Part shown: piece after piece, positions 23,931-62,911 of the stretch
Numbering within the stretch: position 1 is the first letter of the stretch
Layout: every line of letters starts with the position of its first letter
Assembly: GCA_904387055.1 (NCBI GenBank)
Contig: CAJFKV010000003.1
Coordinates: 17,499 to 81,498 of the forward strand
DNA length: 64,000 bases
Source: Candidatus Heteroruminococcus faecigallinarum
GTDB taxonomy: Bacteria; Bacillota; Clostridia; Oscillospirales; Ruminococcaceae
Direction: 5' to 3'
Notes under the pieces: generated by a model
The model's database searches: none
Told to the model about the DNA's origin: nothing
The model's input: the letters and a program-made list of their open reading frames with translations, nothing else
Position numbers and translations under genes: made by a program

Positions 23931-24009
23931 AGTACTGGTGCGTTGGAATCTTCTGCGGCAGGCGGGCGGTTCCAGACGGGCGAACCACTGCCGAAGGGGG
24001 AAGAGTTCG

Positions 24010-24942
24010 GTGATTTCTTTCTACAAAACGATTGACAATACGGTTCAGCCGGTGGACGAGCTGGTGGATGGCTGCTGGGTGTCGGTGGTATCCCCCACCG
24101 CCAGCGACCTGGGCTTTTTGGCGGACCAGCTGGGAGTAGACCCCGGGTTTGTCCAGGCGGCAATGGACGAGGAGGAAAGCTCCCGGATTGAGAGCGACGA
24201 GGGACAGACCCTGGTCATTGTGGACGTTCCCTCCGCCGACCCCCAGCCCCAGGACGAACGTACCATAGTATATTCCACCCTGCCTATGAGCATTATCATT
24301 CTGGAGAATTATGTAATCACCGTCTGCCTGCGGCCCCTTCAGGTAATTGAGGACATTGCGGAGGGGCGGGTGAGAGGGGTGGCCACCCACCTGAAGACCC
24401 GTTTCCTCTTTACCCTCCTGCTGCGGATTGCCAACCGCTTCCTGATCTACCTGAAGCAGATCGACAAATTGACCTCCTACACCGAGATGCAGCTCCACAA
24501 GGCCATGAAAAACGCCGAGCTGATCCAGCTGCTGGGGCTGCAAAAGTCCCTGGTGTTCTTCTCCACCTCCCTGAAGTCCAATGAGATGACCATGGAGAAG
24601 ATCCTGCGGGGGCGGATCCTCAAGCTCTACGAGGAGGACGAGGAGCTGCTGGAGGACGTGCTCATCGAGATCAAGCAGGCCATTGAGATGTGTAGCATTT
24701 ACACGGGGATTCTGTCCAGCACCATGGATGCCTTCGGATCCATCATCTCCAACAATCTGAACATTGTGATGAAGGTGTTGACCTCCCTGACGGTGGTGAT
24801 GGCCATCCCCACCATGGTGTCCGGCTTTTATGGGATGAATGTTTCGGGCCTTCCGTTCCCCTACTTCTGGTTCCCCACCCTGGTGACCCTGATTCTGGTG
24901 GCGGTGGCGACCATCATTCTGGTAAAGAAAGGGATGTTCTGA
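24010..24942 (+). CDS. corA: CorA-family magnesium/cobalt transporter
   Basis: GTG start after AAGGGGGA. C-terminal GFYGMNV motif and two TM helices. Confidence 0.88.
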   Translation: MISFYKTIDNTVQPVDELVDGCWVSVVSPTASDLGFLADQLGVDPGFVQAAMDEEESSRIESDEGQTLVIVDVPSADPQPQDERTIVYSTLPMSIIILENYVITVCLRPLQVIEDIAEGRVRGVATHLKTRFLFTLLLRIANRFLIYLKQIDKLTSYTEMQLHKAMKNAELIQLLGLQKSLVFFSTSLKSNEMTMEKILRGRILKLYEEDEELLEDVLIEIKQAIEMCSIYTGILSSTMDAFGSIISNNLNIVMKVLTSLTVVMAIPTMVSGFYGMNVSGLPFPYFWFPTLVTLILVAVATIILVKKGMF

Positions 24943-24994
24943 CAGGGGAAAAGGCGAGGGGCCCGGTGGAAACAGGCCGTTTTGTAGGTTTGAA

Positions 24995-25030
24995 ATTAGC
25001 TTTGACTAACTTGTGAGGCGGGGCATACTG
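24995..25030 (+). promoter_or_regulatory. ZIP-gene promoter overlapped by an ATTAG-N6-CTAAC palindrome
   Basis: ATTAGCTTTGACTAAC at 24995-25010. TTGACT (25002-25007), 16/17-nt spacer, CATACT. Confidence 0.55.
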
Positions 25031-25103
25031 TCTGTAAGAAGCGCTCTTCCGGCCCTTGGGCGGGAGGAGGGGCGGCTGCCCGGCCTCGAAAGGAGGAAGA
25101 TGG

Positions 25104-25895
25104 ATGAACGGTATTGCATGGGCGGCGGTAGGGACCGGCTTTACCTTTGGAATGACCACCCTGGGCGCGGCGCTGGTGTTCTTTTTCCGCAGGGGGGTGA
25201 GCCCCCAGCTGCAGCGGGTGCTGCAGGGATTTGCGGCGGGGGTGATGATCGCCGCCTCGGTGTGGAGCCTGCTGATCCCGGCCATCGAGGAGGCGGAGGC
25301 CGCGGGCATTCCCGGGTGGATGCCGGCGGCGGGAGGCTTCGTGCTGGGGATTGCCTTCCTGATGGTGCTGGACCTGTGCCTGCCCCATCTGCATCCCGGC
25401 TCCCGGGAACCGGAGGGCCGTCAAGCCGGCTGGAAGCGGACCACCATGCTGGTGCTGGCAGTCACCCTCCACAACATTCCCGAAGGAATGGCGGTGGGCC
25501 TTTCCTTCGCCCTGGCTGCCCAGCACACGGGGGAAGCGGCCCTGGGAGCGTCGGCCCTGGCGCTGGCCCTGGGCATCGGGATTCAGAACTTTCCCGAGGG
25601 AGCGGCCATCTCCCTGCCCCTGCGGCAGGAGGGCTTGTCCCGGCTGCGCAGCTTTGCCTATGGAAGCCTGTCGGGAATTGTGGAGCCGATCTTCGGCATT
25701 TTGGTGGTGCTGGCGGCGGGGACGATCCAGCCGCTGATGCCCTGGCTGCTCAGCTTTGCGGCGGGGGCCATGCTCTATGTGGTGGTGGAGGAGCTGATCC
25801 CCGAGGCCCATCTGGGGGAACATTCCCACCTGGGAACCTTGGGGGTCATGGGCGGCTTCCTGGTGATGATGGTGCTGGATGTGGCCTTGGGATAG
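25104..25895 (+). CDS. ZIP-family (ZupT-like) divalent metal transporter
   Basis: RBS AGGAGG. MNGIAWAAVGTGF...LAVTLHNIPEGMAVG...GIGIQNFPEGAAIS... Confidence 0.88.
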   Translation: MNGIAWAAVGTGFTFGMTTLGAALVFFFRRGVSPQLQRVLQGFAAGVMIAASVWSLLIPAIEEAEAAGIPGWMPAAGGFVLGIAFLMVLDLCLPHLHPGSREPEGRQAGWKRTTMLVLAVTLHNIPEGMAVGLSFALAAQHTGEAALGASALALALGIGIQNFPEGAAISLPLRQEGLSRLRSFAYGSLSGIVEPIFGILVVLAAGTIQPLMPWLLSFAAGAMLYVVVEELIPEAHLGEHSHLGTLGVMGGFLVMMVLDVALG

Positions 25896-26002
25896 GAAGA
25901 AAGCGAGGACTCGCTGTCGAAAGAAGGCAGGATTTTTCTTTCTTCGGCTGATGAAGCTTGACTTTTCCCGGTCAAATGGAGTACACTGGAGCTGGTAGAG
26001 AA

Positions 26003-26026
26003 GGTTAGCAATCGCTAACCTTTTTT
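26003..26026 (+). terminator. hairpin plus T6; also a GTTAG-N6-CTAAC palindrome copy
   Basis: GGTTAGC-AATC-GCTAACC followed by TTTTTT. Confidence 0.55.
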
Positions 26027-26038
26027 ACGTGGAAGAAA

Positions 26039-26056
26039 TGTTAGCTATGACTAACA
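26039..26056. promoter_or_regulatory. perfect palindrome TGTTAG-CTATGA-CTAACA upstream of the P-type ATPase operon
   Basis: Read directly from the sequence. 49 nt upstream of the ATG at 26105. Overlaps a weak ATGACT-17-TATTGA promoter-like element. Confidence 0.5.
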
Positions 26057-26104
26057 GAAAATGAGGCCATATTGACCTTCAGCACAAGAAAGGACGGAAT
26101 CCCT

Positions 26105-26344
26105 ATGAATTGTTTTCACTGCATCAAAAATGAAAAGTTTCTCTGCTTTGTAGGTGGGATTGCAGCTGCTACCATCGGGGTAAAGGCCATCAGGAGCCCA
26201 CAGGCCCGCAAACTGTGTGTTACCGGCATGGCCAAAGGGATGAAGCTGCAAAAGGATGCCCAGGCCATGTTCCAGAACATGAAAGAGGATGCCCAGGACC
26301 TGTGTTATGACGCGAAGATGGAAGCTGAGGGGAAGGACGCATAA
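26105..26344 (+). CDS. 79-aa Cys-containing membrane-associated protein (hypothetical ATPase partner)
   Basis: RBS AAAGGA. MNCFHCIKNEKFLCFVGGIAAATIGV... then an amphipathic Lys/Gln/Ala-rich helix. Its TAA overlaps the ATPase ATG (TAATG). Confidence 0.6.
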   Translation: MNCFHCIKNEKFLCFVGGIAAATIGVKAIRSPQARKLCVTGMAKGMKLQKDAQAMFQNMKEDAQDLCYDAKMEAEGKDA

Positions 26345-28506
26345 TGCACAGCACCATTGTCTATGATCGACCGGGCCGACTGCGCCTTCGGTGTGGCCAA
26401 TATGCCTTTGACCAGCGGCAGGCGCCGGGGATCGAGGCCCTTCTGATGGGCGAGATGGGGGTGGAGCAGGTGACCGCCTGCTCCACCAACGGCAGCATTC
26501 TCGTCCTTTATCGCGGTACGGCCAGAGCGCGGATTCTGGAGCGGGTGGCCGCCATCCGCCGGGACACCATCCCTGCAGCCCCTCAGGAAACGGTCCAGGG
26601 GCTGCAGGAGATCGACAATTGGTTTTGGAACCGGTTTGCTTGGATGGTGGTCCGACGTGCCCTGTTCCGGTTTATTCTTCCTTCGCCGATTCGAATGGCG
26701 GTGACCCTGATAAAGGCGCTGGGATATGGGAGGGCTGGCCTGCACAGCTTGTTCCGTGGGAGGATGGACGTGTCGGTTTTGGATGCGGCCTCCATTGGGG
26801 CGGCCATCGCCCAGGGTTCCTATGCCACCGCCAGCTCGGTGATGTTCTTGCTGTCCCTTTCCGGACTGCTGGAGGAGTATACCCGCCGCCGCACGGGGAC
26901 AGCACTCCGGCAAAGCCTGACAATCCATGTGGATCAGGTGTGGCGGGTGGAAGAAAACGGCCGTGAGGAATCGATTCCCATGGCTTCCCTGCAGGTGGGG
27001 GAGAAGATCCGCATTCGCTGTGGATCGCTGATCCCCGTGGACGGCAAAGTAACCGACGGCGACGGCATGGTGAACGAAGCAGCCATGACCGGAGAACCGC
27101 TGGCTGTTCATAAGCGGCCCGGATCGGTGGTTTATGCGGGCACCACTATGGAAGAGGGGACGCTCACGGTGGAGGTGACCGCTCTTTCCGGGGAGAGCCG
27201 GATCAGTCAGATCGTGGAGATGATTGAAGAGTCGGAAAATTTGAAGGCCGGCGTACAGAGCCGGGCCGAACACCTCGCCGATGCCATTGTTCCGCTCAGC
27301 TTTTTGGGAGCTTTGGGGGTGGGAGCGGTAACCCGCAGCCTGACCAAGGCCCTCTCGGTCCTGATGGTGGACTACTCCTGCGCCATCAAGCTGTCCACCC
27401 CCATTGCGGTGATTTCCGCCATGCGGGAGGCGGCGACCCACAAGCTGATGGTGAAGGGAGGCAAGTATCTGGAAGCCTTTGCCCGGGCGGACACCATGAT
27501 TTTTGACAAGACCGGCACCTTGACTGCCGCCTGCCCTCAGGTGACCAAGGTGATTCCTCTGGCCGGCTATAGCCGGGACCAGGTACTGCGGATTGCCGCC
27601 TGTATCGAGGAGCATTTCCCCCACAGCATGGCCCGGGCGGTGGTCCAAAAGGCAGTGGAGGAGAATCTCCAGCATGAGGAACGTCATGCGCAGGTGGAAT
27701 ACGTGGTGGCCCATGGGGTGTCCACCCAGCTGTATGGCCAGCGTGCCCTCATCGGCAGCTACCATTTTATCTTTGAGGACGAACAGATCCCCTTTCCTCA
27801 GGAGGAGAAAGAGCTGGTGGAACGGGAGACGGCCGGGTCCTCCGCACTGTATCTGGCCATCGGCGGCCGGCTGGCGGGGGTAATCTGCATCAGCGACCCA
27901 CCCCGGCCGGAGGCTGCCCAAGCCATTCAAGAGCTGCGGGAACTGGGGATCCGCCAGGTGGTGATGCTGACCGGCGACCACGAAAACGCCGCCCGCAGCG
28001 CCTGCCGGCAGATGGGTATCTCCCAGTACCGTGCCCAGGTGCTTCCCGACGAAAAGGCCACGCTGGTGGCCCGGTACAAGGAGGGAAGCGCCGGGGTGAT
28101 TATGGTGGGGGACGGCATCAACGATTCCCCCGCCCTGGCTGCCGCCGATGTATCGGTGGCCATGAAGGATTCCTCCGACCTTGCCCGGGAAGTGGCGGAT
28201 ATTACCCTTCTTTCGGCAGACCTGAGGGATCTGGCGGTACTGCGCCGGCTGAGCAGAAGGATGCTGGAGCGGATCGACCGAAATTATCGGACCATCCTTT
28301 CATTCAATACGGCCCTGCTGCTGTTGGGACTGGGTGGCGTACTGCGGCCCACCACTACGGCCATGCTGCACAATCTGTCCACCATGGCCATTGCGGCGGG
28401 CAGCATGCGCCTGTATTTGAAGGAGGAAGACGGCAAACGACAGACGAAACAAACGGCCCTTCCGGCATCCCGCCAGGGATCGGGCCGGAGACGGGGAAGC
28501 CTGTAG
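26344..28506 (+). CDS. heavy-metal-type (P1B) P-type ATPase with a non-canonical TM4 motif
   Basis: 720 aa. TGEP, DKTGTLT and GDGINDSPALAAADV are present. TM4 reads VDYSCAIKLSTP rather than CPC. The last TM carries HNLST. The N-terminal HMA-like domain has no CxxC. Confidence 0.88.
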   Translation: MHSTIVYDRPGRLRLRCGQYAFDQRQAPGIEALLMGEMGVEQVTACSTNGSILVLYRGTARARILERVAAIRRDTIPAAPQETVQGLQEIDNWFWNRFAWMVVRRALFRFILPSPIRMAVTLIKALGYGRAGLHSLFRGRMDVSVLDAASIGAAIAQGSYATASSVMFLLSLSGLLEEYTRRRTGTALRQSLTIHVDQVWRVEENGREESIPMASLQVGEKIRIRCGSLIPVDGKVTDGDGMVNEAAMTGEPLAVHKRPGSVVYAGTTMEEGTLTVEVTALSGESRISQIVEMIEESENLKAGVQSRAEHLADAIVPLSFLGALGVGAVTRSLTKALSVLMVDYSCAIKLSTPIAVISAMREAATHKLMVKGGKYLEAFARADTMIFDKTGTLTAACPQVTKVIPLAGYSRDQVLRIAACIEEHFPHSMARAVVQKAVEENLQHEERHAQVEYVVAHGVSTQLYGQRALIGSYHFIFEDEQIPFPQEEKELVERETAGSSALYLAIGGRLAGVICISDPPRPEAAQAIQELRELGIRQVVMLTGDHENAARSACRQMGISQYRAQVLPDEKATLVARYKEGSAGVIMVGDGINDSPALAAADVSVAMKDSSDLAREVADITLLSADLRDLAVLRRLSRRMLERIDRNYRTILSFNTALLLLGLGGVLRPTTTAMLHNLSTMAIAAGSMRLYLKEEDGKRQTKQTALPASRQGSGRRRGSL

Positions 28507-28539
28507 GGCCCTGCCTTTTGCCGGGGAAAGGAGCAGGTC

Positions 28540-28935
28540 ATGGTTACCTGGATCATTCTGGCAGCGGTGATCCTCATCGCTGTGTACACGGTTGGTTCCT
28601 ATCGGAAAAAGCTGACCTCCGGCTGCTGCGGCGCCCAGGGGGACGGAATGGAAAAGAAAGTAAGGGTGGAGGACCGAAACAAGAACCATTATCCCTATCA
28701 GGCGGTAGTAACCATTGATGGGATGGTTTGCGGCAGTTGCAGCCGGCGGGTGGAGAATGCCCTCAATCGGCTGGATGGGGTATGGGCCCAGGTGGATCTG
28801 GGGGCGGGTACCGCGCTGGTGCGGATGAAATACCCCGTGGAGGATGCCGTCCTCAAGGAAGCAGTAAACAGGAGCGGGTACACGGCCCTTCGGATTACCC
28901 ATCCGACGGGGCCGGTTTCCCAGCCGCTGCTGTAA
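28540..28935 (+). CDS. membrane-anchored heavy-metal-associated (HMA) domain protein
   Basis: N-terminal TM helix followed by SGCCG (this resembles FeoB-associated Cys-rich membrane peptides), then a canonical HMA domain VVTIDGMVCGSCSRRVENAL. Confidence 0.8.
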   Translation: MVTWIILAAVILIAVYTVGSYRKKLTSGCCGAQGDGMEKKVRVEDRNKNHYPYQAVVTIDGMVCGSCSRRVENALNRLDGVWAQVDLGAGTALVRMKYPVEDAVLKEAVNRSGYTALRITHPTGPVSQPLL

Positions 28936-28980
28936 AAAACCGCCCGCCGGAATCGTTCCGATTCCGGCGGGCGGTTTTTT
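28934..28980. terminator. bidirectional intrinsic terminator
   Basis: A-tract, ACCGCCCGCCGGAATCG and CGATTCCGGCGGGCGGT arms, then T-tract. Confidence 0.8.
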
Positions 28981-28995
28981 GCGATACGGGAAAGG

Positions 28996-29508
28996 CTACA
29001 GGGTGAGGGTGGGGGCGGCATAGGTCCGGGCGGCCAGCTCGCTGTCCACCATATACAGGCCCTTGGGATCGCTTCCAAAGAGCTCCATCTTGGTAATCAG
29101 GTCGTGGGAGTTGGTTTCCTCTTCCCCCTGCTCCTTCACAAACCAATCCAGGAACTGGGTGGTGCGGAAGTCCTTCGCCTCCTGGGCGGCGGCGTAGATG
29201 GTGTGGATGAGCCCCGTGACATACTCCTCGTGGGCCAGGCCGGCCTGGAGCGGGTCCATCAGGGTCGAGAAGGCGGTATCCGGCTTGGGGATGGCCTCCA
29301 GCGTGACGGGGGCGTTGTTGTTCTGCAGGTACTGGTAGAAGAGCATGGCGTGATCCCGCTCCTCCTGGGCCTGGACCTTGTACCAGTTGGCAAAGCCATG
29401 TAGGCCTTTTGCTTCGTAGAAGTTGGAAAAATCCAGATACAGATAGGCGGAGTAGAATTCCTTGTTGATCTGGTCATTGAGCAGGGTTGCCACCGTCTTG
29501 TTCAGCAT
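28996..29508 (-). CDS. ferritin (non-haem, Ftn type)
   Basis: MLNKTVATLLNDQINKEFYSAYLYL...QAQEERDHAMLFYQYL... ferroxidase-centre residues. Confidence 0.92.
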   Translation of the reverse strand: MLNKTVATLLNDQINKEFYSAYLYLDFSNFYEAKGLHGFANWYKVQAQEERDHAMLFYQYLQNNNAPVTLEAIPKPDTAFSTLMDPLQAGLAHEEYVTGLIHTIYAAAQEAKDFRTTQFLDWFVKEQGEEETNSHDLITKMELFGSDPKGLYMVDSELAARTYAAPTLTL

Positions 29509-43067: not shown

Positions 43068-43388
43068 ATGCCGGTACAGATCGAAACAGGGCCGGAGGTG
43101 GTGTCGGCCTTCCTCAGCGGGGAGATCGACCATCACAACGCCCGGCAGCTGAGGACGGAGATTGACGAGGCGGCAGTGCGGGTGCTGCCGGCGGTTTTGC
43201 GGCTGGATTTTTCCGGGGTGGAGTTTATGGACAGCTCCGGCATTGGGCTGGTGCTGGGGCGGTACCAGCTGATGGAGGACCTGGGCGGCAAGCTGGAGGT
43301 GACCGGTCTGCCCCGCCACCTGCGGAAGGTGATGACGGTGGCCGGCATCGACAAGCTGGGCATTGTGGAGGAGGGAACCAAACGGTGA
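43068..43388 (+). CDS. spoIIAA: anti-sigma-F factor antagonist
   Basis: STAS domain with phosphorylatable Ser in ...VEFMDSSGIGLVLGR.... Confidence 0.92.
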   Translation: MPVQIETGPEVVSAFLSGEIDHHNARQLRTEIDEAAVRVLPAVLRLDFSGVEFMDSSGIGLVLGRYQLMEDLGGKLEVTGLPRHLRKVMTVAGIDKLGIVEEGTKR

Positions 43389-43846
43389 AGAACGACAACT
43401 TTATGACCTTGACCATCCCCAGCCGGTCGGCCAACGAGGCCTTTGCCCGGATGGCGGTGGCGGCCTTTGTGGCCCAGCTGGACCCAACGGTGGAGGAGCT
43501 GTGTGACATCAAGACGGCGGTGTCCGAGGCGGTGACCAACTGCATCGTCCACGCCTATCGGGATACCATCGGCCGCATCTACATACAGGGGCGGATCGAC
43601 GACCGGCGGATTACCGTCCGCATCCGGGACAAGGGATGCGGCATCCCCGACGTGGAAAAAGCCATGGAACCCCTGTTTACCACCGGCACCGGCGCCGAGG
43701 AGCGGGCCGGGCTGGGATTCGCGGTGATGCAGGCCATGATGGACCGGGTGAAGGTGACCTCCGCCGTGGGCAAAGGAACCACTGTCCTGCTTCAAAAGAG
43801 GCTGAGCGACCGGGGGGATGGGGATGACCGAAAAGACCGCCCTTGA
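43385..43846 (+). CDS. spoIIAB: anti-sigma-F factor (Ser kinase)
   Basis: GTG start overlapping the spoIIAA stop. ...EAVTNCIVHAY..., HATPase_c G-boxes ...RDKGCGI... and ...GLGF.... Confidence 0.92.
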   Translation: MKNDNFMTLTIPSRSANEAFARMAVAAFVAQLDPTVEELCDIKTAVSEAVTNCIVHAYRDTIGRIYIQGRIDDRRITVRIRDKGCGIPDVEKAMEPLFTTGTGAEERAGLGFAVMQAMMDRVKVTSAVGKGTTVLLQKRLSDRGDGDDRKDRP

Positions 43847-44504
43847 CCGGGAGGCTCCCGCCCCGGTAGTGGAGGAGCACCTGGGGCTGGTGCACGCCTG
43901 TGCCCACCGGTTCCGGGGCCGGGGGGTGGAATACGAGGATCTGTACGGCGCCGGGTGCATCGGTCTGGTGAAGGCGGCCGCCGCCTTCGACCGGAACCGG
44001 GGGGTCAAGTTCTCCACCTATGCGGTGCCGGTGATTTTGGGGGAGATCCGCCGCCTGTTCCGGGATGGAGGAAGCGTCAAGGTGAGCCGCAGCCTGAAGG
44101 AGCTGGGCCTGCGGGTGACCCGGGCCCGGGAGGAGATCCTGGCCAAGGAGGGCCGGGAACCGACGGTGGCCCGGCTGGCGGCCCTCTTGGGGGAGAAGGA
44201 GGAGGCGGTGGTGGAGGCCATCAGCGCCGGGACGCCCCCCGTCTCCCTCACCGAGAGCGAGGAGGAGGGCGGCGGCCAGATGGACCTGCCGGTGGACTCC
44301 CCGGAGGAGACCATCACCGACCTGCTCTCCCTGGACCAGGCCATGGACTGCCTGCCCCCGCTGGACCGGCAGCTGATTACCCTGCGGTACTTTGGGGGGA
44401 AGACCCAGACCCAGACCGCCCAGGAGCTGGGCATGACCCAGGTGCAGGTTTCCCGCCGGGAGAAGAAGATCCTCCTGGCCATGCGGCGGCAGCTTACCGG
44501 GTGA
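43818..44504 (+). CDS. sigF: RNA polymerase sporulation sigma factor F
   Basis: Sigma-70 regions 2-4 (...YEDLYGAGCIGLVKAAAAFD...FSTYAVPVILGEIRR...TQTQTAQELGMTQVQVSRREKK). Confidence 0.9.
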   Translation: MGMTEKTALDREAPAPVVEEHLGLVHACAHRFRGRGVEYEDLYGAGCIGLVKAAAAFDRNRGVKFSTYAVPVILGEIRRLFRDGGSVKVSRSLKELGLRVTRAREEILAKEGREPTVARLAALLGEKEEAVVEAISAGTPPVSLTESEEEGGGQMDLPVDSPEETITDLLSLDQAMDCLPPLDRQLITLRYFGGKTQTQTAQELGMTQVQVSRREKKILLAMRRQLTG

Positions 44505-46693: not shown

Positions 46694-48337
46694 TTACTGG
46701 GTGACAGCCTGGTCGGCCAGGGTGATCCGGCAGCTGGCGCTGGCCGCTGTCTGCCCGTCGGGGTCCCGAAGGGTGACGTCCACGGTCAGCTCCAGGAGCC
46801 CGTCCGGCAGGATGTCCAGGAAATAGAGCATCCCAATTTGGGAGAAGTCGTAGTCCCCGTGCCAGCTCATGGCGCCGTCCTCCCCCATGGCGACCCGGCC
46901 GGCCAGGAGGATCTGGTGGGTCCAGCCGTCGGGCAGGCCCATGGGGAGATCGATGCGCAGGAGGCCGTCCGGGGTGACGGAGACGGAGGCGATCACCGTC
47001 TGGACCCAGGCGTCCGGGTCAAAGCTTCCGTCCCCATAGGGGGGCATGCCCAGCATGAGCGCCTCCAGGGTGGGCATGTGGGAGCAGGAGTAGACCATCT
47101 GCCCGTCCTCCCGGTAGAAGGTGGCCGAAAGGGTGACGCACTCCGGCAGGGGATCGGGAATGGGGATGGTATACCCGGTTCCGGCGGCGACCTTCTCCTC
47201 CTGAAGGAAGGGGGTGCGGGTTTCCCCGTCTACCCATTCGCCCTCCAGGGAGAGGGAAAGTTCCTCCTCCGGGGAAAGGGCGGGAGCGCCGAAATACAGG
47301 GTACCGTCGGAGACGCCGATGGAGGCCTGGAACGCTTCCTCCCACTGGACGAAGGCGGCAGGGGTGGAGGCGTCCCCGGAGGCTTCGGCAGCGGCGGTGC
47401 TGGAGGAGCGGTCCCGGGGAAGAAGGTCACCGAAGCAGAGGAGCAGGACCACCGTGGCCGCCAGGGCCAGGGGGACCGCCACCCGGGCGGCGGGATGGGC
47501 CCGACCTAGGGCCAGGAGCCGTTCCTTCAGGCCGTAACCGCCGTTCATCACCGCGGCGGAAGGTCGCCGCTGACCGCCGGCACAAGCCAGAAGCAGGCGG
47601 GCGTAGTCCTGGCGGCGGCCGGTGAGGGCGACCACCTGCCCGTCGCACCGCAGCTCCAGGTCCGACCGCCAGGCAAAGAAGGCCGCCCAGGCGAGGGGAT
47701 TGTACCAGTGGAGGCAGAGGAGGGCCAGGGCCAGCCAGGTGAGCAGGACGTCCCGGTTCTTCCAGTGGCAGAGCTCGTGGAGAAGGGCCTGGTCCCAATC
47801 CTCCTCCGGGAGATGGAGGGGCAGCACCACCACCGGCCGGAACACCCCGGCGGTGCAGGGACGCTCCCCGCCCAGGCGAAGCTCCGGAAGGGTGTCCCGC
47901 CCCAGCAGGCCGGCACACCGGCGGGCGGCAACCTGGAGACGGTCATCTCCGGGGGAGAGGGAGCGCAGCCGGCGGCGCAGGCGCAGCTGGCCAGCCAGCA
48001 GCCACAGGGCCAGGACGGCGGCCCCGGCCAGCCACAGGAGAAGCGGCCAGGGGAGGGGTGTTCCCGCGGGGGAAGGGGTCAGGGGGACGGCGGCTGCTTC
48101 CGCCCCCGGAAGGGGGGTGGGGACGGCGGTTTGGGGGGAGGGGGAGAGGACAGCGGCCCCGCCCGGCCGGGCAAAGGGGCTGGCAAAGGTGACAGGGAGG
48201 GCCAGCCGCAGGCCCACCAAGCCCCACAGGGCCATCCGGACGGCGGGGGTGAGGAAGCGGCCCAGGGCCAGCCGAAGGAGCAGAGCCGCCGCCAGCAGCA
48301 GGGAGGCGGAGAATGCCCAGGAAAGCAGGGTGGTCAC
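46694..48337 (-). CDS. BlaR1/MecR1-type M56 metalloprotease signal transducer with an unrecognised C-terminal extracytoplasmic domain
   Basis: GTG start overlapping the blaI stop (GTGA). HELCHWKNRD zinc motif and TM helices. The C-terminal ~250 aa has no SxxK motif and no PBP-like motifs. Confidence 0.8.
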   Translation of the reverse strand: MTTLLSWAFSASLLLAAALLLRLALGRFLTPAVRMALWGLVGLRLALPVTFASPFARPGGAAVLSPSPQTAVPTPLPGAEAAAVPLTPSPAGTPLPWPLLLWLAGAAVLALWLLAGQLRLRRRLRSLSPGDDRLQVAARRCAGLLGRDTLPELRLGGERPCTAGVFRPVVVLPLHLPEEDWDQALLHELCHWKNRDVLLTWLALALLCLHWYNPLAWAAFFAWRSDLELRCDGQVVALTGRRQDYARLLLACAGGQRRPSAAVMNGGYGLKERLLALGRAHPAARVAVPLALAATVVLLLCFGDLLPRDRSSSTAAAEASGDASTPAAFVQWEEAFQASIGVSDGTLYFGAPALSPEEELSLSLEGEWVDGETRTPFLQEEKVAAGTGYTIPIPDPLPECVTLSATFYREDGQMVYSCSHMPTLEALMLGMPPYGDGSFDPDAWVQTVIASVSVTPDGLLRIDLPMGLPDGWTHQILLAGRVAMGEDGAMSWHGDYDFSQIGMLYFLDILPDGLLELTVDVTLRDPDGQTAASASCRITLADQAVTQ

Positions 48338-48744
48338 GGATGGTCATCTCCTTTCTCGCCGGCGGGAAGGTTGTCCAGCCGGGCGGCCAGCCGTTCCAGC
48401 TCGGCCCGCTCCTGGGGGGTGAGGCGGCTTTCCCGGGCCAGGGCGGCCATCATCAGGGAAACCGACCCGTCAAAGACCCGGGAGAGAAAGCTGTGGGCCT
48501 CCTGCACCCGGCAGGTGCTGCTGTCCACGGCGGCCGTATACCGGAAGCTGTTCCCCACCGACCGGTCGGCCAGGATGAGCCCCTTGTTGACCAGCCGGCC
48601 CACCAGGGTTTTGATGGTGGAGTAGCTCCAGCCGCTCCCCTCCAGGGCGGCGACAATCTGGTGGAGGGAGGCGCCGGGGCAGCGCCACACCACCTCCATT
48701 ACCTTCCACTCCCCCTCGCTGATGGAGTATCGTCTTGTTTCCAT
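48334..48744 (-). CDS. BlaI/MecI/CopY-family transcriptional repressor
   Basis: RBS AAAGGAGGG. METRRYSISEGEWKVMEVVW...SYSTIKTLVGRLVNKG.... Confidence 0.88.
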   Translation of the reverse strand: METRRYSISEGEWKVMEVVWRCPGASLHQIVAALEGSGWSYSTIKTLVGRLVNKGLILADRSVGNSFRYTAAVDSSTCRVQEAHSFLSRVFDGSVSLMMAALARESRLTPQERAELERLAARLDNLPAGEKGDDHP

Positions 48745-48770
48745 GGGGATCCCTCCTTTGGACATTCGGC

Positions 48771-48804
48771 TACATTTGTGGCTTTCATTAAGTCTACATC
48801 TGTA
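48771..48804. promoter_or_regulatory. two TACAnnTGTA-type boxes (BlaI/CopY operator)
   Basis: TACATTTGTG at 48771-48780 and the perfect TACATCTGTA at 48795-48804 (within CTACATCTGTAG), in the divergent intergenic region. Confidence 0.65.
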
Positions 48805-48985
48805 GCTTCAAAATGTCAAGGGGAGGAGCGGGAAAGAGGGGAGAAAAGCTCCATGGAAGGGGGACCTTCCATGGGTGCAACCGGCGGTTGACGGATTTTC
48901 GGGCCCTGTATGTGGACAGCAACCGGTTCTTTTGGTACAATCGAGCTGGAAGAACGGCAGTGCCGATGGAAAGGAATGGTTGGGA

Positions 48986-50002
48986 ATGGTTGGATTGGGA
49001 GAGCGGATTTCCCGCCTGCGGAAGGAGCGGGGATGGTCCCAGGAGGAGCTGGCCGGGCGGCTGGAGGTGACCCGGCAGTCGATCTCCAAATGGGAGAGCG
49101 GGACCTCGGTTCCCGACCTGGAGAAGATTCTGCGGATGGGGGAGCTGTTTGGGGTGAGCACCGATTTCCTTCTCAAGGAGGGGGAAGAGGCGCAGCCGTC
49201 CGGCCGGGCGGAAGAAGCCCGCAGCGTCTCCCGGGAGGAGGCGGAGGCGTACCTGTCCGCGGTGGAGAGGCTGGCCCCTCGGAAGGCGCTGGCCGTGGCC
49301 CTGTTTATCCTGTCCCCTGTGGTCCTGTTCCTGCTGCAAAGCGGGAAGGAGAGCGGTATATTCCCCCTTCCCGCGGGACTGGCAGAGGGAATCGGGCTGG
49401 TTGTGTTGCTGGGCATGGTGGCGGCGGGGGTGGGCCTGCTGATCCTGAGCGGCCTGCCCCGTTACGACTATCTGGAGGAACGGGAGATCGCCCTGTCCCG
49501 GGAGGGAAAGGAATGGGCAAAGAGCTGCCGGGAAGGGTTCCGGCCCCGCCTCCAGCGGGGGGTGGCCGTCGGGGTTGTCCTGTGTATCCTGGGGGCGGCG
49601 CCGGTGGTGCTGGCCGGGTCCCTGGACGCCGGGGAGCCGTGGGGAAGCGTCTGCTTCTGTATGCTGCTGATTCTGGTGGCCGGGGGTGTGTATGGGTTTG
49701 TGCGCCACGGGGTGGTGTACAACGCCTATGCCAAGCTCCTCCAGGAGGGGGAATATACCCGCCGGCAGAAGGAGCTGAACCGGCGGTTTGCCTATCTGCC
49801 GGGGGTGTATTGGTGCCTGGCGACCGCCCTGTATCTGGGGATCAGCTTCCTGTGGAACAGCTGGGACACCTCGTGGATTGTGTGGCCGGTGGCGGGGGTG
49901 CTGTACGCCGCCCTGCTGAGCCTCCTCTACGGCCTGGCCGAGGCCAGGGGGCGGAAAGAAACCAAATCCTGCGAGCAAGAAAGGAAGAGGGAACGGTCAT
50001 GA
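48986..50002 (+). CDS. XRE-family HTH regulator fused to a polytopic membrane domain
   Basis: MVGLGERISRLRKERGWSQEELAGRLEVTRQSISKWESGTSVPDL followed by about 6 TM helices. The track ORF start 48875 is over-extended. Confidence 0.8.
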   Translation: MVGLGERISRLRKERGWSQEELAGRLEVTRQSISKWESGTSVPDLEKILRMGELFGVSTDFLLKEGEEAQPSGRAEEARSVSREEAEAYLSAVERLAPRKALAVALFILSPVVLFLLQSGKESGIFPLPAGLAEGIGLVVLLGMVAAGVGLLILSGLPRYDYLEEREIALSREGKEWAKSCREGFRPRLQRGVAVGVVLCILGAAPVVLAGSLDAGEPWGSVCFCMLLILVAGGVYGFVRHGVVYNAYAKLLQEGEYTRRQKELNRRFAYLPGVYWCLATALYLGISFLWNSWDTSWIVWPVAGVLYAALLSLLYGLAEARGRKETKSCEQERKRERS

Positions 50003-61291: not shown

Positions 61292-61963
61292 CTACGAATG
61301 TTCCCGTCGAAAGCAAAGGAACCAGTCCAAGCAATATTGGTCACCCGATTGATTTTCCATCCGCTCCCGAGCGGTGCCGCAGGAACCGGCGGTGGGAATG
61401 ATGACGTCGTCGCCGGGACGCCAGTCGGCCGGGGTGGCACATTGATCCGCGTCGGCTTTTTGAAGGGCCTGGACCAAACGCTTGATCTCATCAAAGTTTC
61501 GGCCGGTGGAGAGAGGATAGTACAGGATGGCGCGAACCTTGGCGGAGGGATCGATGACAAAGACCGCCCGGACCGCCTGGGTGGTGGAGGCGCCCGACTG
61601 AATCATGCCGTACCGATGGGCAATCTCCATCCGAATATCCTCAATGAGGGGGAAGGTGACCTCCAGATGCTCCTTGTCCTTCCATTTCAACTCCTGGATT
61701 TTGCGCAGCCAGGCAATGTGGGAATAAAGGGAATCCACCGATAACCCTATCAGCTGGGTATTGAGGGCATCAAATTCCTCCAGCATGGAGGCGAAGGTCA
61801 TAAATTCGGTAGTGCAGACAGGGGTAAAATCGGCCGGGTGGGAAAACAGAACGATCCATTTCCCGGCAAAATCCTGGGGAAAATGAATGACGCCCTGGGT
61901 GGTGACGGCTTCAAAGGCAGGGGCGTCGTCCCCAATGAGGGGCATCTTGTGCATGGCTTCCAT
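61292..61963 (-). CDS. peroxiredoxin (Prx6/1-Cys-like AhpC/TSA family)
   Basis: RBS AAGGAGG. ...WIVLFSHPADFTPVCTTEF... peroxidatic Cys, and a C-terminal CLDWFLC tail. Confidence 0.9.
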   Translation of the reverse strand: MEAMHKMPLIGDDAPAFEAVTTQGVIHFPQDFAGKWIVLFSHPADFTPVCTTEFMTFASMLEEFDALNTQLIGLSVDSLYSHIAWLRKIQELKWKDKEHLEVTFPLIEDIRMEIAHRYGMIQSGASTTQAVRAVFVIDPSAKVRAILYYPLSTGRNFDEIKRLVQALQKADADQCATPADWRPGDDVIIPTAGSCGTARERMENQSGDQYCLDWFLCFRREHS

Positions 61964-62053: not shown

Positions 62054-62106
62054 GGTTAGTGTAAACTAACCAATGAAATAATACCATTTTACTCTTTTTT
62101 TGACAA
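62054..62106 (-). promoter_or_regulatory. peroxiredoxin promoter with a GGTTAG-N6-CTAACC palindrome at the transcription start region
   Basis: On the minus strand: TTGTCA (62101-62106), 17-nt spacer, TATTAT (62078-62083). The palindrome lies at 62054-62071, 6 nt downstream of the -10. Confidence 0.55.
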
Positions 62107-62205: not shown

Positions 62206-62235
62206 GGGGAAAGGCGGCTGCCTTTCCCCCTTTGG
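62206..62235. repeat. 30-bp hairpin (terminator-like), copy 2
   Basis: Exact copy of 61247-61276, located just 3-prime of the DUF1847 gene. Confidence 0.85.
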
Positions 62236-62284
62236 GCTGCAGAAGAGATACGGCCGGCGGAAGGTGTTCCCCCGGCATGGCCGG

Positions 62285-62911
62285 CTATTGGCCGGGGAAG
62301 AGCTGGTTTTTGTAGTAGCCGGTGTACAGAGCGCCGGCGGGGTTGTGGGAGAGGACCCGGTCCTTGGTGATGGCGGTGGTGACCGGCGCATCGGAATATT
62401 TGTAAAACAGGGAGTCGTGGCCCACGCAGAGGCCGACCACCACGTTGAGCTGGGTGCCGATGCGGTTGAGGAGCGTGGCTTGCAGGATGGGGTTGCAGGA
62501 ATATTCCCCGCATTCTTCGCATTCCAGGGGGAGGCCCAGCTCATGCTTGGGGACCATGCCCACTTTGCAGCCCACCCCGTAAACCTCCAGCCCCATCAGG
62601 CGCAGGTGGCGGGCGATGAGGCGGGCCTCGTTGATCAGCCCCACGCAGGTGGCGATTCCCACCCGGCGGCAGCCGATCCGCTGGGCAAAGCGGCCGATCT
62701 CCTGGATGCGGGGAATGTGGTAGCCTTCGCATTCGGTGACGGCGGCGGCCAGGAGAAGGGTGTGGTTTTCCTCCTCCTCGTAGAGGGCCAGAGCCGCCCG
62801 GAGCTCTTCCGGGTCCAGGTTCTCGGTGAGGCAGAAATCCGGGAAGGGGCCTTTGCCGTGGTTGCAGCCGGCTGTTCCGCAGTCGATGCAGGAACGAGGG
62901 GTGGTCTCCAT
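62285..62911 (-). CDS. DUF1847-family Cys-rich (putative metal-binding) protein
   Basis: METTPRSCIDCGTAGCNHGKGPFPDFC...LECEECGEYSCNPILQ...VVGLCVGHDSLF.... Confidence 0.75.
   Translation of the reverse strand: METTPRSCIDCGTAGCNHGKGPFPDFCLTENLDPEELRAALALYEEEENHTLLLAAAVTECEGYHIPRIQEIGRFAQRIGCRRVGIATCVGLINEARLIARHLRLMGLEVYGVGCKVGMVPKHELGLPLECEECGEYSCNPILQATLLNRIGTQLNVVVGLCVGHDSLFYKYSDAPVTTAITKDRVLSHNPAGALYTGYYKNQLFPGQ

Follow-up and report, generated by a model that had tools for sequence, protein, structure and literature searches.

The 64,000-nucleotide stretch of Candidatus Heteroruminococcus faecigallinarum DNA analyzed here (the window) carries four copies of a 16-bp palindrome on the promoters of a ZIP-family metal transporter gene, a P-type ATPase operon, and a peroxiredoxin gene. 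From sequence comparison, we consider it probable that a two-domain DtxR-family metalloregulator, encoded elsewhere in the genome, uses these palindromes as single-dimer operators.

The repeated palindrome is a real and functional-looking feature. Exact matches to TTAG-N6-CTAA occur four times in the window, against a mean of 0.08 in 100 dinucleotide-preserving shuffles, none of which held more than one. Searching with RTTAG-N6-CTAAY and allowing one mismatch added no site anywhere in the window. When a position weight matrix (PWM) trained only on sites from other genomes was run over the window, the four predicted operator sites scored between 24.1 and 25.1 bits and no other position reached 8 bits; the top score in 30 Markov shuffles was 15.0. 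The sites, to which no strand is assigned, are site 1 (ATTAGCTTTGACTAAC, 24995-25010; 24.2 bits), site 2 (GGTTAGCAATCGCTAACC, 26003-26020; 25.1 bits), site 3 (TGTTAGCTATGACTAACA, 26039-26056; 24.1 bits), which lies 36 bp downstream of site 2, and site 4 (GGTTAGTGTAAACTAACC, 62054-62071; 24.3 bits). Their consensus is G-TTAG-[C/T]-N4-[G/A]-CTAA-C, and all four fall within non-coding DNA, which by a rough gene list makes up about 20% of the window. The original prediction had placed four intergenic copies at these coordinates, and all four were found there again, each outside coding sequence.

Each site was also placed relative to a promoter-like sequence. The ZIP gene is preceded by TTGACT-16-CATACT (25002-25029, plus strand) and the ATPase operon by TTGACT-18-TACACT (25958-25987, plus strand), both recognized by consensus match only; a strong, TG-extended TTGTCA-17-TATTAT with 10 of 12 consensus matches (62078-62106, minus strand) precedes the peroxiredoxin gene. 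Site 1 covers the -35 hexamer TTGACT of the ZIP promoter-like site, an overlap already claimed for it that the match to TTGACT-16-CATACT bears out. Sites 2 and 3 come 17 and 53 bp after the -10 element of the operon promoter-like site, which places site 2 at approximately +10 to +25 of the predicted transcript and site 3 about 50 bp before the start codon of the first gene, whereas site 4 begins 8 bp past the -10 element of the peroxiredoxin promoter. Because all four sites overlap or closely follow a core promoter, the arrangement is typical of repression. Directly upstream of the peroxiredoxin gene and on the same strand is a gene for a Cys-rich DUF1847 protein (62206-62911), which has its own terminator-like hairpin at 62229-62206; the peroxiredoxin promoter is therefore predicted to be separate and operator-controlled.

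The geometry of the palindrome points to the kind of protein that would bind it. In IdeR-DNA crystal structures, each subunit sits on one CCTAA repeat out of the four in the 19-bp box TTAGGTTAGSCTAACCTAA, and one dimer contacts repeats 1 and 3 or repeats 2 and 4 (PMC8464063). Since one dimer takes repeats 1 and 3, the per-dimer IdeR site reads TTAG-N6-CTAA, a pattern that all four window sites match. At none of them was a second TTAG-N6-CTAA found at +5 or -5 bp (3-7 mismatches of 8 bases), so they correspond to a single-dimer version of the IdeR box; IdeR single dimers also bind designed and natural half sites (PMC8464063). The earlier judgment that the palindrome does not fit DtxR/IdeR operators is thus reversed by the crystallographic contact pattern, and what had been taken for an unknown operator class is most likely a single-dimer DtxR/IdeR-type operator, a known kind of switch. 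With the actinobacterial IdeR/DtxR box the sites share the half-site word TTAG/CTAA with its flanking G and C, a per-dimer spacing of 10 bp between centres (PMC8464063), and a location on the promoters of iron-uptake genes. They differ from it in having one dimer site per copy, with separate copies 19-36 bp apart instead, and in belonging to a Clostridia-class anaerobe. Searches of the literature available for this analysis found no published description of the motif or the regulon in Clostridia. Fur, Zur, and PerR boxes are 15-bp 7-1-7 inverted repeats (19 bp with flanks), hence of odd length, and were rejected for 16-bp sites with a 6-bp spacer. CIRCE/HrcA, FapR, CRP/FNR-type 5-6-5, AdcR/MarR, and NolR operators were also considered, and none combines the word, the spacing, and the neighborhood evidence.

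That neighborhood evidence links the motif to a small two-domain DtxR-family regulator, as judged from gene position and site density. Searching with MntR and DtxR (tblastn) revealed a small DtxR-family gene in two motif-bearing loci, with matches to PF01325 (Fe_dep_repress; 49.5 and 42.9 bits, cut-off 26) and PF02742 (Fe_dep_repr_C; 50.7 and 51.2 bits, cut-off 27). The regulator gene adjoins motif-bearing targets in five different organisms (loci L007, L026, L090, L097, and L106). In Anaerotignum lactatifermentans (L007), it is divergent from fezA-fezB, the ferrosome genes discussed below, and stands amid five sites; in an Oscillospiraceae metagenome-assembled genome (MAG; L026), it (MVLQESGEMYLETIYVLSHKK...) begins 11 nt past the stop codon of a ZIP gene. 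In L090 it belongs to a fezC-like/methyltransferase/regulator operon that starts after fezB and has a perfect site in front, and in L097 it follows DUF2325-DUF3793-flavodoxin-ZIP, so that the ZIP gene is directly upstream of the regulator gene there as in L026. The protein in L106 is more divergent, matching in the N-terminal domain only; its gene and fezA-fezB diverge from an intergenic region that holds two one-mismatch sites. Fur and DtxR genes have been noted as frequent neighbors of fez clusters by the authors who described ferrosomes (bioRxiv 10.1101/2020.01.10.902569).

A metagenome scan with an alignment of the regulator yielded 80 loci spanning 630 kb. These regulator-centered loci contain 76 exact copies of GTTAG-N6-CTAAC, compared with none in 940 kb from unrelated loci. 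When one mismatch is tolerated, sites are concentrated in front of the regulator gene itself: 68 lie within 300 bp upstream of its start (2.96/kb, against 0.084/kb elsewhere in the loci). At least one site in this interval is present in 29 of 77 loci, frequently as a tandem of two to four. Clustering of sites before a regulator gene is what comparative genomics usually shows for a factor that controls its own gene through its operator. The repressor that the original prediction had left unidentified is in this way tied, by neighborhood and by the site clusters on its own promoter, to a DtxR-family protein. The accompanying statement that no regulator is encoded beside these genes holds for the window, and the flanks of the peroxiredoxin locus contain no regulator gene. 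The regulators that the window does encode, namely a BlaI-type repressor, an XRE protein, a LysR fragment, and a sigma factor, were each considered, and none fits.

The motif is also conserved on the promoters of the ATPase operon in other genera, as footprinting of these upstream regions revealed. Relatives' loci were fetched with an alignment of FezB homologues. In a scan of genome contigs with the ATPase alignment, no relative among the matches listed was closer than 55%; many unrelated P-type ATPase loci, likewise among the matches listed in that scan, supplied the background set. Among 24 fezB homologues from several families (43-66% identity), the 700-bp upstream regions together hold 13 sites with at most one mismatch, or approximately 0.8/kb, compared with eight such sites (0.0085/kb) and no exact 16-mer in the 940 kb of unrelated loci. 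The motif precedes fezA-fezB in Paralachnospira (L010), Blautia (L011), a Lachnospiraceae MAG (L024), and two Oscillospiraceae/Ruminococcaceae MAGs (L026 and L090); Collinsella (L023), with a single one-mismatch site, provides much weaker evidence. The closest relatives of the window's FezB are Oscillospiraceae-type (for example Intestinimonas, 65% identity), and the three closest (64-66% identity) have sites or near-sites on the fez promoter. From site to site, the G-TTAG and CTAA-C arms do not change, C/T is preferred at position 5 and G/A at position 10, and the four bases in the centre are variable. Separate copies in relatives are spaced 19-34 bp apart.

Gene calls with Pfam annotation delimit a compact metal island at 23938-29508 of the window, in the order CorA, ZIP, a 79-aa protein, a 720-aa P-type ATPase, a 131-aa HMA protein, and, convergent on the opposite strand, a ferritin. 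Within this island the operator motif occurs only on the ZIP and ATPase operon promoters, and the PWM scan gave no site at the ferritin gene. The first predicted target encodes a ZIP-family divalent-metal transporter of 263 aa (25104-25895, plus strand; PF02535, with a match to the ZupT model below its cut-off). The ATPase gene (26344-28506, plus strand) encodes GRLRLRCG at the N terminus, DYSCA in the region of the fourth membrane helix, and HNLST near the C terminus; Pfam recognizes only E1-E2_ATPase and Hydrolase in it and no N-terminal HMA domain. FezB of ferrosomes is a P1B-6 ATPase with D[Y/F]SCA, HNxxT, an R-rich RxRxR motif, and no N-terminal metal-binding domain (bioRxiv 10.1101/2020.01.10.902569). 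Because it carries the P1B-6 signatures DYSCA, HNLST, and RLRLR, the window enzyme is by its motifs a FezB-type ferrosome iron-storage ATPase rather than an ordinary efflux pump, and the metal-efflux label first given to it does not stand.

The genes on either side of the ATPase gene resemble fezA and fezC in part. The 79-aa protein (26105-26344, plus strand) has a hydrophobic N-terminal segment, occupies the same operon position as fezA, and matches DUF6110 weakly (21.3 bits, below the cut-off of 26); its equivalent in a relative (L090) is recorded as DUF6110. The 131-aa protein (28540-28935, plus strand) is FezC-like and membrane-anchored, with one N-terminal hydrophobic helix, a C-terminal HMA domain (Pfam HMA, residues 56-114), and the motifs SGCCG and GMVCGSC, whereas D. 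magneticus FezC carries its HMA domain at the N terminus and has two helices (bioRxiv 10.1101/2020.01.10.902569). Judged by its genes, the operon is a probable ferrosome (fez) cluster. Expression of fez genes reportedly rises in low iron (bioRxiv 10.1101/2020.01.10.902569), and the C. difficile ferrosome system FezA/FezB is Fur-repressed and needed under iron limitation (PMC12574912). The remaining predicted target, a 1-Cys-type peroxiredoxin of 223 aa (61292-61963, minus strand), matches Pfam AhpC-TSA and 1-cysPrx_C and exceeds the cut-off of NCBIfam NF009668 with 321 bits.

In relatives, the motif extends to further genes. It occurs on the promoters of feoA (L013), the feoB region (L025), DUF2325 and DUF3793-flavodoxin (L007), and flavodoxin-DUF3793 (L016). 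Genes for ferrous-iron uptake (feoA/feoB) and flavodoxin are classic iron-limitation genes, and the regulon content in relatives points to an iron-limitation regulon. The pyruvate formate-lyase promoter in L016 (L016:2500-5223) bears two sites, one between the -35 and -10 elements and one just downstream, which would fit an iron-sparing switch away from the iron-sulfur-rich pyruvate:ferredoxin oxidoreductase. A cluster of DUF2325, DUF3793, and flavodoxin genes recurs under the operator (L007:1765-3142, L016:13585-14747, and L097:2694-4062), suggesting a joint function of both DUF proteins with flavodoxin when iron is limiting. The theme of metal uptake, metal efflux, and peroxide stress that had been proposed for the window gives way to one of iron limitation. 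The idea of one operator, common to the ZIP gene, the ATPase operon, and the peroxiredoxin gene and read by one repressor, is upheld by promoter placement, by conserved arms with varying spacers, and by conservation across genera.

Residues of the regulator bear on the metal that it senses. The proposed regulator has about 120-130 aa; the family members examined end at approximately 120-150 aa and have two domains, without an SH3-like third domain. Eleven of the 12 members examined have M-C-E-H at the primary metal site and the L007 protein has N-C-E-H, the Cys being present in all 12. M-C-E-H is the DtxR/IdeR arrangement (Met10, Cys102, Glu105, His106), in contrast to D-E-E-H in MntR. The sulfur ligands M10 and C102 have been linked to selectivity for Fe(II) over Mn(II), and swaps at these positions switch or broaden the response (PMC11672702). 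The recognition helix reads [ST]-[RK]-P-S-[VI]-S-R, in register with S-G-P-T-V-S-Q of DtxR and sharing the pattern S-x-P-[ST]-V-S-x with it; it keeps Ser37 and Pro39, has Ser for Thr40, and replaces Gln43 of DtxR with Arg. In IdeR, Ser37, Pro39, and Thr40 touch the CCTAA repeat (PMC8464063). Given the sulfur ligands of the M-C-E-H site and the content of the regulon, iron is predicted to be the more likely signal, with manganese or a mixed response as its main rival.

A mechanism consistent with these features can be outlined. When metal, most likely Fe(II), is plentiful, a metal-loaded dimer would occupy each site and repress transcription, at ZIP by masking the -35 hexamer and at the fez operon and the peroxiredoxin gene by masking the start and the first transcribed stretch. 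Under iron scarcity the apo-protein would leave, allowing joint expression of the fezA-fezB-HMA cluster with the ZIP importer and a peroxidase that contains no iron. We infer that the sites mediate repression and not activation, that Fe(II) acts as the signal, and that the host carries the regulator. More speculatively, the peroxiredoxin may serve as an iron-free substitute for iron-dependent peroxidases. The scheme resembles control of fezA/fezB by Fur in C. difficile in its target, a small membrane protein with a P1B-6 ATPase, and in its logic of repression in iron-replete and expression in iron-limited conditions (PMC12574912). It differs from the C. difficile system in the regulator (Fur versus the DtxR family), in the operator, in the HMA protein added to the cluster, and in sharing the operator with the ZIP and peroxiredoxin genes.

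Several observations weigh against this scheme. No match was obtained when the 64-kb window was searched by tblastn with MntR, DtxR, or the relatives' regulator. Roughly every second fezB homologue locus lacks a site, and regulation of the peroxiredoxin gene is predicted from this window only. The metagenome loci are not independent, several being from the same species, with about ten distinct groups visible. The L007 protein has Asn at the position of Met10, and the ancillary site of DtxR (His79, Glu83, His98) is not conserved, only His79 being kept. The best NCBIfam match of the regulator is MntR, although below the curated cut-offs (87.7 versus 153 and 71.4 versus 138 bits), and the nearest solved structure is that of B. 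subtilis MntR. Finally, L013 and L162 have, downstream of their motif sites, open reading frames (ORFs) for proteins resembling the DNA-binding domain of Fur (88 and 81 aa, respectively).

The MntR matches and the Asn of the L007 protein lend some weight to a regulator of the same family that reads the same operator with Mn(II), or Mn together with Fe, as its signal; the ZIP transporter and the ATPase would then serve Mn supply, and the peroxiredoxin would belong to Mn-linked oxidative stress. MntR and ScaR/SloR/MtsR are precedents for responses to Mn(II) or to Mn and Fe. B. subtilis MntR is, like the regulator described here, a small two-domain DtxR-family protein, and it is the best match in both structure and sequence. 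MntR and the streptococcal proteins ScaR, SloR, and PsaR are also alike in acting as single dimers on A/T-rich palindromes of transporter promoters, and the streptococcal Mn-regulator boxes have the layout AATTAA-N6-TTAATT, with the spacing seen here. One source names the homologues "Mn-dependent DtxR family transcriptional regulator," and DtxR expressed in B. subtilis answered both Fe and Mn (PMC11672702). In contrast to the MntR/ScaR/SloR/PsaR group, the regulator has metal-site residues of the DtxR type, with Met in 11 of 12 and Cys in 12 of 12 members at the positions that separate DtxR/IdeR from MntR, and the regulon in relatives consists of iron-limitation markers (feoA/feoB, flavodoxin, and the fez cluster). 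Assignment to the MntR equivalog was rejected on both scores and on the Met and Cys found where MntR has Asp and Glu ligands; every MntR model score is under its curated cut-off. The NCBIfam DtxR equivalog was not reached either (48.8 versus a cut-off of 290 bits). On balance, manganese sensing appears unlikely, and we favor a DtxR-family switch that responds to iron. Separately, the regulator/fezA intergenic region of L106 (L106:7400-7745) contains a further palindrome, GTTAAGCAAAGTTAAC (TTAA-N6-TTAA), which we take to be built on the streptococcal Mn-regulator type of half site.

It is considerably less probable still that the palindrome is bound by a different protein (a Fur-family variant, a MarR or Rrf2 regulator, or the short Fur-like ORFs) and that the DtxR-family gene is only a co-regulated neighbor. 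Such a protein would be compatible with the window, where no regulator gene adjoins the sites, and with the Fur-like ORFs, but the motif is densest directly before the DtxR-family gene in many genomes, and its geometry and half-site word match the crystallographic per-dimer site of IdeR (PMC8464063). Motif-bearing fez loci contain no full-length Fur-family gene; full-length Fur matches were found only in L061, which has no motif, and in L062, a CopA-type ATPase locus with one site. The odd-length 7-1-7 layout of Fur, Zur, and PerR boxes argues in the same direction. The Fur-like ORFs themselves (L013:8949-9215, 88 aa, next to feoA, and L162:3144-3389, 81 aa, next to an ABC-transporter ATPase gene) resemble only the N-terminal winged-helix domain of Fur and may be regulated targets or accessory DNA-binding proteins.

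A role for the palindromes as RNA hairpins, whether leader structures or terminators, and not as protein-binding DNA is hardly credible: although sites 2, 3, and probably 4 would be transcribed and site 2 with its flanks forms a 15-bp hairpin (-21.1 kcal/mol, z = -7.6) followed by U6, site 1 lies on a -35 hexamer and would not be transcribed, sites 1, 3, and 4 fold weakly (-4.6 to -7.7 kcal/mol), relatives lack the T-run of site 2 at their equivalent sites, an Rfam search gave no match, and an invariant arm sequence with a spacer that varies across genomes is the signature of a protein site and not of a pairing constraint. The hairpin at site 2, a perfect 15-bp stem GUAGAGAAGGUUAGC-AAUC-GCUAACCUUUUUUAC at 25995-26028, directly after the predicted fez transcription start and followed by the U-run, may have a second role as a 5' stabilizing stem or early terminator besides that of a protein site.

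A possible RNA product of the regulon was observed in the Lachnospiraceae MAG locus L016, where transcription from a TTGACA ... TAATAT promoter with two operator sites (L016:13335-13455) would meet, about 60 nt on, a strong intrinsic terminator (CAGCCACGG...CCGTGGCTG and T7); the interval contains no ORF. In the predicted transcript of approximately 85 nt, a UUUCUCCU stretch is left unpaired and could bind ribosome-binding sites by base pairing; Rfam gave no match. This transcript may represent a small RNA of the RyhB/FsrA type under iron control.

Taken more broadly, these comparisons allow a tentative proposal, which we hold at slightly less than an even chance, that many gut Oscillospirales and Lachnospirales use this clade of regulators, built like MntR but with a recognition helix and Fe site of DtxR-like type, as their master iron sensor in the role that Fur has in C. 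difficile, and that through TTAGC-N4-GCTAA the clade runs ferrosomes, ferrous-iron and ZIP uptake, and iron sparing (flavodoxin, pyruvate formate-lyase, thiol peroxidase, and possibly a RyhB/FsrA-type small RNA). Iron regulation in uncultured gut Clostridia has hardly been studied so far, and the analysis supplies a concrete operator and a candidate regulator for their iron-limitation genes. The locus first read as encoding a heavy-metal efflux ATPase is reread as a probable cluster for ferrosomes, which are iron-storage organelles. This suggests that commensals too, and not C. difficile alone, deploy ferrosomes under iron limitation, here with a DtxR-type and not a Fur-type switch. The motif is directly usable for predicting iron regulons in MAGs.

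Other features of the window concern sporulation and a further repressor. The segments 43068-44504 and 48334-50002 encode a STAS anti-anti-sigma factor, an anti-sigma kinase, and a sigma factor, a spoIIAA-spoIIAB-sigF-like trio that indicates a spore former, and a BlaI/Penicillinase_R-family repressor whose gene is divergent from a 375-aa gene. A SASP gene was called near the peroxiredoxin gene in L087.

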